Of a stretch of DNA of 44,450 nt, positions 41,740 through 44,450 are shown piece after piece. Numbering within the stretch: the first letter of the stretch is position 1; each line of letters begins with the position of its first letter. Made by a program: the position numbers and the translations under genes. Source of the stretch: Escherichia phage vB_EcoP-101101UKE1; the sequence record MZ234012.1; one strand, given 5' to 3'. A model generated the notes under the pieces. It was not told the DNA's origin and did no database searches. It saw only the letters and a list, made by a program, of their open reading frames with translations.

Positions 41740-42045
41740 GCAGGTTAATATCTTAGTGTACACAAGGGCAGACCTAGGTTTGCTCTTAGTGTATTTACAA
41801 TGGAGGTCTTATGTATATACCTATGGAAGCAATAGTAGGTTGCCTGTGTTTGTTGGTAGGCTTCATTATAGGCTTAATAGCAAACCCTTAGTGTAATCCA
41901 AGGAGGTAACATGCAAGAAGAGAATTGGGATGTGTAATATTGGGTTTGGAGGAGGTTGAACCTTAGTCCTGTACAAGGATTAACCAAAGTCAAAATTTTG
42001 ATATATGCGTGTGTCAGTTCTCTCGCCCTCGCCCTCGCCGGGTTG

Positions 42046-42066
42046 CCCCCCCCCCCCCCCCCCCCC
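42046..42066. repeat. 21-nt poly(C) homopolymer
   Basis: Uninterrupted run of 21 C, preceded by (CGCCCT)x3 and followed by TATAGGG. Confidence 0.9.
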
Positions 42067-42326
42067 TATAGGGTGGCCTGAGGGAATCCGTCTTCGACGG
42101 GCAGGGCTGATGTACTCCTTGGATAGTACAAGGGAGGCGGAGGGAACGCCTAGGACGGCCTAGGGAATGGCTTAGTGGTGGACAAGGTGATTACCTTAGT
42201 GAAGCCTCTTAGTGCATTCCTGAGGCCATTCAGGGCGTTTATGAGGGATTGACAGGGTGAATGGGTGTGGGCTATCTGTTCGTTTCGTTCACTCCGCTTG
42301 CGCTCCGTTCACTCGCTCACGTGTAC

Positions 42327-42453
42327 CTTAGGTTATTACTTGATGGATAGCTTAGGTTAACCTTAGTGGAATGCCTTAGTTAAAGACTTAGTGCTTATCT
42401 TAGTAACAGCTTAGTAGTGTACCTTAGTTGGTCTTAGTGAATAGCCTTAGTGA
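42327..42453. repeat. array of about 10 CTTAGT short repeats with 10-13-bp spacing
   Basis: CTTAG occurs at 42327, 42351, 42362, 42375, 42387, 42399, 42410, 42423, 42433 and 42446. Further copies at 42171, 42196, 42208 and between 42590 and 42775. Confidence 0.85.
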
Positions 42454-42648
42454 TTGCACATGCAAGAATGTAAGATGCCAATAGGTCGCGGTCGGTAGAC
42501 CGCTAAAGAGAGAGAATAGTAATAAGATGCAGTAGGAGGAACACCAGAAACCTAGCCAACCTAGCCTATCCTAGCTCTGTATCTATTGCTTTTCCTTAGT
42601 CTAACATGTGAGACAACCTAGATTTATCTTAGTGATGATATCTTAGTG

Positions 42649-42677
42649 TTGACAAGGCCATCTCAATATAATACTAT
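42649..42677 (+). promoter_or_regulatory. candidate sigma70 early promoter (TTGACA-17-TACTAT)
   Basis: Perfect -35 hexamer, 17-bp spacer and a good -10, upstream of the first early gene. Confidence 0.55.
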
Positions 42678-42820
42678 TCATCACGTAGGCAGCACTGAGG
42701 TGCTTAGTAGCCAGCTAGTAAGGCATACGAAGAGACTAGCGCTTACATTGCTCTTTAACAATTTGCTTAGTGTAACCTATGTATGCCGTGGTCAATTACT
42801 TATTGAATGAGGAATTAACT

Positions 42821-43000
42821 ATGACATTAAACAACCGTGAACTGTCCGTTCTCTTCACTCTGTTGTGCTACATGATTCGTAACAACGAATTACTTACAGA
42901 CGATGAGTTAGCCTTGTATCACCGCTTTCTTAACGAAGGTTGGACCGATACAGTTAATCAATACCGTAACATGATAGATGAGTTGAGGGAGGGTAAATAA
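42821..43000 (+). CDS. early hypothetical protein (59 aa)
   Basis: RBS gagga 8 nt before ATG 42821; the track ORF opens at 42779. Confidence 0.4.
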   Translation: MTLNNRELSVLFTLLCYMIRNNELLTDDELALYHRFLNEGWTDTVNQYRNMIDELREGK

Positions 43001-43224
43001 TGTATCAGCATGAGGTTTTCTTTGAGTCAGCTAGTGAAGCTATCCGCTTCCTTGAAGATATGCTACAAGCTGGCGTAGGTGTTGATGTACATCACTTCCT
43101 ACTAGATTACGACACTGAATATCACCGAGTTACCTTAGTATCTGAGTATGACAACCAAGTCATTACTGAGTACCTAGGCAGTGAAGATTACGATTACGAT
43201 GAAGTAATCACGACAAATCTCTAA
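43000..43224 (+). CDS. early acidic protein (74 aa, Asp/Glu/Tyr-rich)
   Basis: TAATG-coupled to the preceding gene, RBS gagggagg. Strong net negative charge. Confidence 0.4.
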   Translation: MYQHEVFFESASEAIRFLEDMLQAGVGVDVHHFLLDYDTEYHRVTLVSEYDNQVITEYLGSEDYDYDEVITTNL

Positions 43225-43232
43225 ATTAACTG

Positions 43233-43261
43233 TTGACAGCCACGGCATACAAGGTTACATT
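43233..43261 (+). promoter_or_regulatory. candidate sigma70 early promoter (TTGACA-17-TACATT)
   Basis: Perfect -35 hexamer with a 17-bp spacer. Confidence 0.45.
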
Positions 43262-43353
43262 AAGCATCAAGACGGCGACGTCTTTAAACATCCCGCTCTT
43301 TAACAATACGGTTTGTGTCTTGATAGGCTAACTAACTAACTAAGGTAATTATC

Positions 43354-43464
43354 ATGAAAGGTTTAATTTGTGTAGAACGTATGGTCAATGGTAAACTTGA
43401 AATATTACCACTGGAAAACCAATCTAGCTTCAAAGAGTGGTATGGCTGTTTCTCACTGATTTAA
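43354..43464 (+). CDS. early small protein (36 aa)
   Basis: ORF after the TAACTAACTAA stop cluster with a weak RBS. Confidence 0.3.
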   Translation: MKGLICVERMVNGKLEILPLENQSSFKEWYGCFSLI

Positions 43465-43614
43465 GGTAGAGGCTGGCACTAGTCAGCCTATCAAGGCGCA
43501 AACCAAGCTCTTTAACAATTTGGATAAAGCTTCTTAGTCTGGATAGGTTAAACCTAGGAGATTCTCTTGAGTCTCCTATAATGTAACCTAACTAACTAAA
43601 TGAGGATTAATAAC

Positions 43615-43968
43615 ATGGCTATGTCTAATATGACTTACTCTCAGGTTTACAACACCGCTCATGCTGCATTAGTTGAACGTATCTGGAATGATGATATTGA
43701 TTGTATCGATAACGCACATGATGCAATCCATGATGCGGCGGATAGCGCTGTACCAATCTATTATGCTGACATCTTCTCCGTGATGGCGAGTGAAGGTATT
43801 GATCACTTCTTCGAAGACTCCGGCCTGATGCCAGATACTAAGGATGTAACGGTCGTACTACAAGCCCGTATTTATGAACAACTCACCATTGATTTATGGG
43901 AACGTGTTCAAGATATGATTGTTGAGTACACCACTTACGCTGAGTATTCAGAAGAAGAGGAAGAATAA
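43615..43968 (+). CDS. ocr: Ocr-like DNA-mimic anti-restriction protein (T7 gene 0.3 homolog)
   Basis: MAMSNMTY..., [43 protein letters not shown] and [15 protein letters not shown] closely match my recollection of T7 Ocr. 117 aa with an acidic C-terminus. RBS gagga 7 nt before ATG 43615. Confidence 0.8.
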
Positions 43969-43969
43969 G

Positions 43970-44083
43970 ATGGAAAAGCTATACAACTTCATCTTTTCAG
44001 ACGGTGTAACCCTGAAGTGTTCCCTACGATTCGCACAAATTCGTGAGGAAGTACTAGGCACTACATACAAACTATTTAGCTGA
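43970..44083 (+). CDS. early small protein (37 aa)
   Basis: Begins 2 nt after the ocr stop, in the slot of T7 gene 0.4. No sequence similarity recognised. Confidence 0.3.
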   Translation: MEKLYNFIFSDGVTLKCSLRFAQIREEVLGTTYKLFS

Positions 44084-44098
44084 CACTATAAGAGAAGG
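44074..44098 (+). promoter_or_regulatory. degenerate phage-promoter-like element (ATTTAGCTGACACTATAAGAGAAGG)
   Basis: Strong resemblance to the consensus but with TATAAGAG in place of TATAGAAG. Confidence 0.3.
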
Positions 44099-44159
44099 CT
44101 TAACAAGGCGTTGCTACGGTAGCGCCTGATTAAACTTTCACTTACTAGGAGTTAAGACT

Positions 44160-44387
44160 ATGGATTTAGATAGCATCATTATGGCATTTGCTCTTATTGG
44201 CTTAAGCTGGTGCTCCTATCACCTTTACCGTGAGTTCTTATTTGATAAAGCTAAACGCAAACTAAGAAAGGAAGGCGGCAATTACCTTTGTGTAAGAGGT
44301 GGGCTTGTAGAATACATTGCACCTAACGGCACGGAATGCGCCATTAGCAAAGATGCATTTATAGAAACGTGGCATTACATCAAGTAA
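44160..44387 (+). CDS. early membrane protein (75 aa)
   Basis: RBS aggag. N-terminal TM helix IIMAFALIGLSWCSY. Confidence 0.4.
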   Translation: MDLDSIIMAFALIGLSWCSYHLYREFLFDKAKRKLRKEGGNYLCVRGGLVEYIAPNGTECAISKDAFIETWHYIK

Positions 44388-44421
44388 CTAGCCTATAGTC
44401 TACCTGAGTGGGCTATGTGAT

Positions 44422-44446
44422 ATTTACTTACACTATATAAGGTGAC
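44422..44446 (+). promoter_or_regulatory. degenerate phage-promoter-like element (ATTTACTTACACTATATAAGGTGAC)
   Basis: Partial match to the consensus, immediately upstream (across the circular junction) of the ORF at 1. Confidence 0.25.
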
Positions 44447-44450
44447 TATT

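Follow-up and report, generated by a model that had tools for sequence, protein, structure and literature searches.

The boxA element that Escherichia coli carries in its ribosomal RNA (rrn) operons is the loading site for NusB and NusE, whereas the boxA of phage lambda is a weaker variant, CGCUCUUA, that needs the N protein bound to a boxB hairpin downstream of boxA. As RNA, boxA recruits NusB–NusE and acts with NusA, NusG, and SuhB to render the host RNA polymerase fast and Rho-resistant (PMC5725501, PMC10250234), and in rrn operons a boxA with the full rrn consensus is necessary and sufficient for this without a phage protein (PMC10250234). The consensus for gamma-proteobacteria, GYTCTTTAANA, was derived by Baniulyte et al. 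(PMC5725501). The rrn leader–trailer helix carries an RNase III site, the 16S helix needs more than 17 base pairs (bp) for RNase III, and a second boxB–boxA–boxC set lies upstream of the 23S gene (Warner et al., PMC10250234); Wahl and co-workers proposed that NusB-bound boxA anchors the leader strand at the polymerase until the trailer emerges and pairs (PMC10250234). T7 is described as having a "boxA anti-termination element" whose mutation makes gp2, the inhibitor of host polymerase, dispensable (Savalia 2010, cited in PMC3709561). Here, we compare these systems with the early region of Escherichia phage vB_EcoP-101101UKE1 (sequence record MZ234012.1), analyzed as one stretch of 44,450 nucleotides (nt) that we call the window. 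Based on sequence comparison, we consider it likely that three copies of a 13-mer, GCTCTTTAACAAT, in this region are rrn-type boxA antitermination elements on early transcripts of the host polymerase, each followed by a helix in a layout like that of rrn operons. The presence of boxA in the T7 group is already known, and the weight of this report lies on the helices and not on the motif.

The three copies of the 13-mer are:

42750-42762, plus strand: boxA1, GCTCTTTAACAAT; unpaired in the centroid fold
43295-43307, plus strand: boxA2, GCTCTTTAACAAT; unpaired in the centroid fold
43507-43519, plus strand: boxA3, GCTCTTTAACAAT; looped out of a weak 5-bp stem in the transcript fold

These are the only exact matches in the whole 44.4-kb window, all on the plus strand, and 100 dinucleotide-preserving shuffles contained none. 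All three fit the GYTCTTTAANA consensus, to which the window holds no further exact match. Each copy lies in a noncoding gap ahead of an early gene, namely gene 1 (start codon at 42821), an open reading frame (ORF) of 36 amino acids (aa; 43354), and ocr (43616), with distances to the start codon of 58 nt for boxA1, 46 nt for boxA2, and 96 nt for boxA3. A preliminary description of this region had already noticed three copies in the gaps ahead of early genes, which is right, with coordinates that were 2 nt too high. The 13-mer agrees in every letter with boxA in the rrnH leader of E. coli (tGCTCTTTAACAATttatcagacaatctgtgtggg); it is also found at positions 781-793 of T3 and at 813-825 of T7, between promoter A3 (750; promoters A1–A3 are annotated in T7) and gene 0.3 (925), so that a similar T7 element upstream of 0.3, which the preliminary description had mentioned, turns out to be identical. 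A match in the tailspike gene (41489), seen at two mismatches, is no more than expected by chance, and a search of IMG/VR viral contigs with a 14-mer, GCTCTTTAACAATT, gave many single, scattered hits among the matches listed, which are mostly chance at that database size and were not used.

Conservation was assessed in five full Autographiviridae genomes, together with stretches from the left end or early region of 23 further loci. In the full genomes, consensus boxA elements occur in the early region and on the sense strand only: three in this window, three in K1E, two in SP6, one in T7, and one in Pectobacterium phage PhiM1. The left-end and early stretches contain three in K1-5 and in Lelliottia phage phD2B, two in Proteus phage PM93 and in K30, and one each in T3, Cronobacter phage Peggy, and the P. 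putida phage gh-1, and the sixteen early-region loci from IMG/VR viral contigs have two to three boxAs each. Early-region, sense-strand placement is seen in 62 of 63 boxA matches (27 loci, with gh-1 additional), and the single exception looks like chance. The motif, whose conservation in related phages the preliminary description had left to be checked, is therefore kept across the Autographiviridae sample. Over 62 instances in four named subfamilies the 13-mer is near-invariant, with few single-base variants, and its flanks are replaced: when 40 nt on each side were compared, 120 pairs of copies had the same downstream flank and unrelated upstream flanks and 27 pairs had the reverse arrangement (147 in total). 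Given that the flanks are swapped and the 13-mer is unchanged, we conclude that selection acts on the motif itself. On these comparisons, boxA appears to be widespread, not universal, in the family.

boxA also coincides with a mosaic breakpoint. Three relatives (L134, L148, and L139) have no cassette at the position between boxA2 and boxA3, and their boxA runs straight into the ocr leader (junction boxA at L134:3176, L148:3415, and L139:3183); in L134 and L148 the junction boxA has the flank that boxA2 has on its upstream side. The cassette looks as though it had been lost by recombination between boxA copies. Near-copies precede the ocr-leader hairpin in SP6 (GATCTTTAACAAT, at ~1535) and in K1E (NC_007637; GCTCTTTTAACAAT, at ~2238, with one extra T), which may be real decay or sequencing errors. 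The boxA of gh-1, at 728, is located between the A3 promoter and the annotated R1 RNase III site.

An unbiased repeat search, made with no prior assumption, found inverted repeats that form two long-range helices, which we call A and B:

42764-42791, plus strand: 5' arm of helix A, TGCTTAGTGTAACCTATGTATGCCGTGG; begins 1 nt past boxA1
43240-43266, plus strand: 3' arm of helix A, CCACGGCATACAAGGTTACATTAAGCA; repeats of 15 nt at 93% and 12 nt at 100%
43310-43334, plus strand: 5' arm of helix B, GGTTTGTGTCTTGATAGGCTAACTA; begins 2 nt past boxA2 and runs with its final 7 nt into a CTAA repeat
43480-43504, plus strand: 3' arm of helix B, TAGTCAGCCTATCAAGGCGCAAACC; stops 2 nt short of boxA3

Helix A consists of 27 bp with one bulge, has 448 nt between its arms, and encloses genes 1 and 2. 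Helix B pairs 25 nt at 88% complementarity (~22-25 bp), has 145 nt between its arms, and encloses the 36-aa ORF. In a scan that paired the 40 nt past every boxA with the next 1-1.3 kb and used shuffled arms as controls, the duplex energy of helix A was -47.9 kcal/mol, against ~-23 kcal/mol for shuffled arms, and that of helix B was -40.7 kcal/mol, against ~-24 kcal/mol. Both cassette types reach -36 to -53 kcal/mol in this window, K1-5, K1E, SP6, PM93, phD2B, PhiM1, K30, Peggy, and the IMG/VR loci, and shuffled-arm duplexes lie at ~-23 kcal/mol, with a best value of ~-33 kcal/mol except for Peggy (-38.7 kcal/mol). When the 942-nt transcript from the start of the predicted early promoter P1 to ocr was folded, helices A and B were present in both the minimum free energy and the centroid folds (z -5.6).

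Covariation also speaks for the pairing. Joined-arm alignments, in which the 3' arms were chosen as the best duplex partners and the percentage paired is inflated by that choice, gave for helix A (11 sequences) 27 pairs with 95.9% of cells paired and compensatory change at 9 pairs, and for helix B (12 sequences) 22 pairs with 98.9% of cells paired and compensatory change at 5 pairs (15 cells). Several points offset this caveat. The arms are positionally homologous, with a fixed distance to the next boxA and shared flanks; the controls fail, as none of 500 shuffles reached the observed value for helix A or the observed covariation score for helix B, and sliding the partner left 22-43% and 23-46% of cells paired, respectively; and the energy controls cover the search itself. 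The non-Watson–Crick cells, read on the plus strand, comprise 44 G.U and 7 A.C, an asymmetry that argues for a constraint on sense-strand RNA rather than one at the DNA level.

The same boxA–helix–Shine–Dalgarno (SD) cassette (boxA followed by GGyTwGTGTCTTGATAGGCT...AGGTnAnTATCATG) is found ahead of unrelated small ORFs in SP6, K1E, K30, PhiM1, phD2B, and Peggy. A leftward promoter on the complement of the helix A 5' arm was considered and rejected: its TTGACC is present in this phage and is not conserved in relatives.

The rrn operons are among the closest described counterparts of this arrangement. Used as a positive control, the same duplex scan recovered the 16S leader–trailer helix of rrnH, which starts right past boxA and has its partner immediately 3' of 16S; its energy was -57 kcal/mol, whereas shuffled arms gave -30 to -34 kcal/mol. 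Beyond the identical boxA 13-mer, the two systems share a long-range helix whose 5' strand lies directly past boxA (the phage gap is 1-2 nt) and which the one scan finds in both, helices long enough for RNase III (27 and 22-25 bp in the phage), and a fresh boxA after each phage helix, comparable with the second element set ahead of 23S. Two further features amount to resemblance only. The phage 5' arms have a GU-rich UGUGU stretch ~8 nt past boxA, whereas rrn boxC lies 18-19 nt past it, and upstream of boxA2 there is a small hairpin that occupies the boxB position:

43269-43284, plus strand: small hairpin AAGACG-GCGA-CGTCTT between the predicted promoter P2 and boxA2; GNRA-type loop, -7.0 kcal/mol, z -3.35

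The variants of this sequence in relatives retain a hairpin, and by analogy it might serve as a boxB. There are also differences from rrn. What lies inside the phage helices is short protein-coding ORFs and not stable RNA (the arms are 145 and 448 nt apart), three phage units are packed into less than 900 bp, and one phage helix arm holds an internal predicted promoter. The helices are thus leader–trailer-like in layout and are not members of the rRNA family.

Other boxA systems share less with this locus. As in lambda nut, a phage boxA RNA would recruit host Nus factors to the host polymerase (PMC10250234); unlike lambda nut, the elements described here have the full rrn consensus and the hairpin at 43269-43284 is upstream, not downstream, of boxA2. 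A boxA also precedes poorly translated or untranslated RNA in the suhB 5' untranslated region (UTR), where a consensus boxA controls Rho termination or translation (PMC5725501), and, reportedly, in the leaders of CRISPR arrays (PMC7665894). Each of those is a single site, and the literature read describes no long-range helix next to it, whereas the phage sites are serial and helix-paired.

The boxA3 unit differs from the first two and corresponds in position to the early leader of T7 and T3. The structure that follows boxA3 is a local one:

43530-43605, plus strand: irregular hairpin of the ocr leader, 76 nt, with upper and lower stems separated by an internal loop; -30.6 kcal/mol, z -4.96

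It starts ~10 nt past boxA3, at the position of R0.3 in T7 and T3. At the foot of the hairpin the 3' base strand CTAACTAA (43588-43595) pairs with TTAGTCTGG, and the GAGG of the SD sequence is weakly paired to CUUC. The ocr-leader hairpins of distant phages could not be aligned by MAFFT (RNAalifold found no structure), so we relied on an alignment of seven Vectrevirus sequences and on single folds. The former has 29 pairs, two upper-stem pairs of which are compensatory (AGGAGA/TCTCCT versus AGGGTA/TACCCT); the latter show the same lower stem, internal loop, and upper stem, with unrelated upper-stem sequences, in SP6, phD2B, PM93, and an IMG/VR relative (L140) whose RNA polymerase is ~85% identical. 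An irregular hairpin of at least ~20 bp with an internal loop in an intergenic position is the feature of a T7-type RNase III site, and the 43530-43605 hairpin has this form; it is a plausible, structure-predicted candidate for an RNase III substrate. An Rfam search of 42000-44450 with E values up to 10 returned only sub-threshold noise from eukaryotic microRNA and small nucleolar RNA families, and Rfam has no family that covers boxA or T7 RNase III sites. In T7 and T3, as here, the 13-mer is on host-polymerase transcripts upstream of the anti-restriction gene, and the set of boxA3, hairpin, and ocr is the counterpart by position of their boxA, R0.3, and gene 0.3. However, T7 and T3 have one boxA and local hairpins only, whereas this phage has three boxAs, two of them with long-range helices, and the hairpin sequences of T7 cannot be aligned with those of this phage.

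The window holds, in circularly permuted form, the genome of a K1-5-like phage (Vectrevirus, Molineuxvirinae, Autographiviridae), and the stretch 42000-44450 is 99.9% identical in nucleotide sequence to KMB47, 95.7% to EEc4, and 93.8% to K1-5. The left end of the genome is near 42020-42063, and the region discussed here is therefore the start of the early operon. The early gene order was taken from the ORF list and the K1-5 annotation. The genes and the predicted sigma-70 promoters are:

42649-42677, plus strand: P1, predicted sigma-70 early promoter, TTGACA-17-TACTAT, 10 of 12 consensus matches
42821-43000, plus strand: gene 1, 59 aa, inside helix A; K1-5 gp1 (781-960) fixes the start codon
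43000-43224, plus strand: gene 2, 74 aa, inside helix A; K1-5 gp2 (960-1184) fixes the start codon
43233-43261, plus strand: P2, predicted sigma-70 promoter, TTGACA-17-TACATT, a consensus match
43354-43464, plus strand: 36-aa ORF, MKGLICVERM... (full sequence MKGLICVERMVNGKLEILPLENQSSFKEWYGCFSLI), with a good SD, inside helix B; no coding sequence at this place in the K1-5 record
43616-43968, plus strand: ocr, T7 gene 0.3-like anti-restriction gene, MAMSNMTY..., annotated as "protein Ocr" in close relatives

The N-terminus of Ocr is the same as that of T7 0.3. Downstream of ocr there are small genes and then, past the wrap of the permuted sequence, gene 6 (1-924) and the phage RNA polymerase gene (from 988). 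The inferred start of P1, at ~42684, is ~66 nt upstream of boxA1, and the P1 region is ~80% conserved out to Proteus phages. The predicted start of P2 is ~27 nt upstream of boxA2. The spacer and -10 element of P2 lie inside the 3' arm of helix A, and P2 transcripts would start just past that arm; the TTGAC of P2, which is outside the helix, is invariant and unpaired in the helix A alignment. P1 transcripts would consequently carry both arms of helix A and P2 transcripts neither, giving differently structured RNAs for the same downstream genes.

boxA1 and boxA2 are located downstream of predicted sigma-70 starts, and the orientation and early location of boxA are consistent in relatives. Based on the analogy with rrn, we posit that each phage boxA RNA would bind NusB–NusE (S10) and that, with NusA, NusG, and SuhB, the host polymerase would be converted into a fast, Rho-resistant, rrn-like antitermination complex; boxA3 would be read by polymerases arriving from P1 and P2. 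So modified, the polymerase could cross the untranslated gaps and tiny ORFs of an early region that is about one-third untranslated and reach the phage RNA polymerase gene (988). The Nus factors bound to boxA may hold the leader strand at the RNA exit channel and thereby favor closure of helix A or B when the trailer emerges, RNase III may cut helices A and B and the ocr hairpin, and the factors would be reloaded by the next boxA after closure or cutting off of the preceding unit. Stray ribosomes may, in addition, be stopped short of the ribosome binding site by the three-frame stops of the CTAA clusters ahead of the SD sequences. Two properties of T7 would fit such a mechanism: host-polymerase transcription helps to pull the T7 genome into the cell, and 0.3 is translated better with RNase III cleavage at R0.3. 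With less than even confidence, we tentatively extend this scheme to a model in which the early operon of K1-5/SP6-like phages, and the cassettes that they share with Corkvirinae and Studiervirinae, would be a chain of mini rrn-like units, in each of which a boxA and a leader strand would be followed by at least one small ORF and then by a trailer strand. Here, boxA-bound Nus factors would keep the leader at the exit channel so that the helix forms cotranscriptionally, RNase III would excise an mRNA with paired ends, the next boxA would reload the factors, and the units would act as recombining modules.

No description of boxA or of the helices in SP6/K1-5-like phages was found in the searchable literature, a scope outside which the key genome papers fall and within which PMC3709561 was the sole relevant hit on boxA in SP6, K1-5, or T7-like phages. 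What looks new is the serial arrangement of boxAs, each with a conserved or covarying helix, the bracketing of ORFs by helices A and B, and the occurrence of this arrangement in several Autographiviridae subfamilies. If the model is true, these phages copy the whole logic of rrn operons, in which Nus-modified transcription is coupled to long-range RNA pairing and processing; with units of only 150-450 nt that are non-essential and easy to mutate, they would provide a natural system for testing the proposal that tethering by boxA helps distant RNA strands to meet; and both the presence of multiple boxAs and the exchange of early-gene cassettes precisely at boxA would be explained. For therapeutic K1-capsule phages, the analysis also points out regulatory elements, and one or more small ORFs, that annotation has missed.

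Several observations weigh against this interpretation, in addition to the inflated percentage of pairing already mentioned. The duplex scan found no long-range duplex above control for ocr-type leaders, T7, or T3; given that T7 and T3 have boxA without a long-range helix, the helix is not an obligatory partner of phage boxA. The first 5 kb of phiKMV contain no boxA within two mismatches. A local hairpin at 43465-43492 shares sequence with the 3' arm of helix B and competes for it. A scan for the sigma-70 consensus found no promoter directly upstream of boxA3, and P1 and P2 are themselves consensus matches only, in a region whose count of promoter-like sequences is not above the shuffled expectation. 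The RNAs enclosed by the helices are translated mRNAs, and ribosomes could disturb the long-range pairing and already give some protection from Rho. Lastly, in the literature reached we found no reports of Nus binding, antitermination, or RNase III cleavage for SP6/K1-5-like phages.

Among alternative explanations of the locus, the one that survives best concerns the clusters of TAA triplets ahead of the second and third genes rather than the 13-mer itself:

43328-43345, plus strand: CTAACTAACTAACTAAGG, (CTAA)4 running into the SD of the 36-aa ORF, TAA in all three frames
43588-43599, plus strand: CTAACTAACTAA, three-frame stop cluster directly before the ocr SD

The core of these clusters, (C)TAACTAACTAA, is at 43328-43343 and 43588-43599, with exact, in part overlapping copies of TAACTAACTAA at 43329, 43333, and 43589, where shuffles lead one to expect 0.07 copies and none reached three or more. 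The preliminary description had stated that two gaps have TAA in all three frames directly before the ribosome binding site. This is correct for the starts at 43354 and 43616, whose upstream 35 nt have stops in all three frames (the gene 1 leader, 42821, has them in only two), and is not always maintained in homologous leaders. The clusters might be dedicated three-frame stops that insulate the early ribosome binding sites from upstream ribosomes. Three-frame stops no more than 35 nt from the start are present in 21 of 44 unique early leaders, those of T7 and T3 0.3 included, versus 6.7 expected from shuffles, although the leaders counted are phylogenetically related, and a crude genome-wide control found them in 12 of 34 early leaders versus 17 of 163 later ones. 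The ocr-type cluster TAACCTAACTAAC is conserved in 16 distinct leaders of K1-5-like and related loci among those listed, with TAACTTAACTAAC in phD2B and TAACTTACTAACTAAG in SP6, where one TAA is replaced by TGA and the stop is kept. However, only one or two frames contain stops in the homologous cassette-B leaders of K1E (1975), PhiM1, K30, and Peggy, TAA and TGA are also produced by extended complementarity to the SD (TAAGGAGGTGA), the ORF list contains no sizeable upstream ORF that reads into the clusters, and part of each cluster is predicted to be paired in a helix (CTAACTA, 43328-43334, is the tail of the helix B 5' arm). An insulating role is therefore possible, and the data do not require it; we regard a dedicated one as rather unlikely. 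The folds suggest that the CTAA-repeat clusters are a G-poor stretch between helix and SD, each of them partly a predicted helix strand. A further occurrence, TAACTAAGTAA at 914, was rejected as simply the end of gene 6 with its stop codon.

A second alternative, which we consider improbable, is that the boxA copies act mainly on translation, either as A/U-rich enhancers bound by ribosomal protein S1 or as Nus-dependent repressors like that of the suhB 5' UTR. The boxA of rrnB has served as an "A/U-rich enhancer," and boxA RNA is bound by S1 (PMC2176067, citing Mogridge and Greenblatt 1998); translation of suhB is repressed by its boxA, and many boxAs lie within 50 nt of a start codon (PMC5725501). 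The end of boxA2 is only 46 nt before a start codon, but boxA1 and boxA3 are 58 and 96 nt from theirs, with helices in between, and do not adjoin the SD. The genetic phenotype of T7 boxA is transcriptional read-through (PMC3709561). Moreover, the full rrn 13-mer and not mere A/U richness is kept exactly, which argues for NusB/NusE specificity.

That the long-range inverted repeats function at the DNA level, as inverted promoter copies, opposed protein-binding sites, or the ends of mobile cassettes, seems to us distinctly improbable. The 3' arm of helix A does coincide with the spacer and -10 element of P2, and the cassettes are mobile between phages. The preponderance of G.U over A.C cells on the plus strand (44 versus 7), however, is predicted neither by a DNA duplex nor by a two-site protein model, the arms are at a fixed distance from boxA as in rrn, the arms of helix B have no promoter, and in most relatives the complement of the 5' arm has no conserved -35 element, as judged by eye.

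We view as very improbable the idea that the 13-mer is kept mainly as a recombination linker for the exchange or deletion of early-gene cassettes between and within phages. The sharp mosaic breakpoint at boxA (120 and 27 flank-swapped pairs) and the three relatives without the boxA2–boxA3 cassette are what a linker would produce. Yet homologous recombination has little to work on in 13 bp, conserved functional sites can be expected to collect breakpoints as a by-product, and a linker leaves unexplained the identity with host rrn boxA, the sense-strand-only and early-only distribution, and the single copy in T7 with its genetic antitermination phenotype.

Finally, that the 13-mer is an RNase III recognition or processing site, or a part of one, that punctuates the early mRNA is the least probable reading: T7 and T3 do bear the motif a short way upstream of gene 0.3 with its R0.3 site, and helices of RNase III size begin 1-2 nt past boxA1 and boxA2 and ~10 nt past boxA3, but the 13-mer has the exact sequence of rrn boxA, which is known to bind protein as a single strand, has no covarying complementary partner, is single-stranded or in a loop in global and local folds of the window, which is not the hairpin of a T7-type RNase III site, and in T3 (781-793) lies outside the annotated R0.3 stem-loop (822-875). 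The preliminary description had proposed a processing or punctuation signal and an alignment with T7/T3 RNase III sites; in that comparison the motif precedes the T3 site, and what survives of the proposal is that the RNase III-sized helices start directly after the boxAs.

Some features of the surrounding sequence are recorded here in their own right. At 42017-42066, TCTCGCCCTCGCCCTCGCC is followed by a long C run (~24 bases), a mark of the permuted genome's physical left end or terminal repeat; the length of this homopolymer is perhaps unreliable in assemblies. A CTTAGT repeat array extends over 41752-43538 and is densest at 42362-42451, with 21 plus-strand copies in 1.8 kb, eight of them at 10-13 nt spacing; the whole window has 55 copies versus 30.5 expected. 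The array is at the left end, upstream of P1, and seems to correspond to the short repeat arrays near the T7 terminal repeat. Within the early region, sequences similar to SP6-type phage promoters, ATTTAGCTGACACTATAAGAGAA (44075-44097) and TATTTACTTACACTATATAAGGTGA (44420-44445), are located ahead of gene 5 and gene 6.

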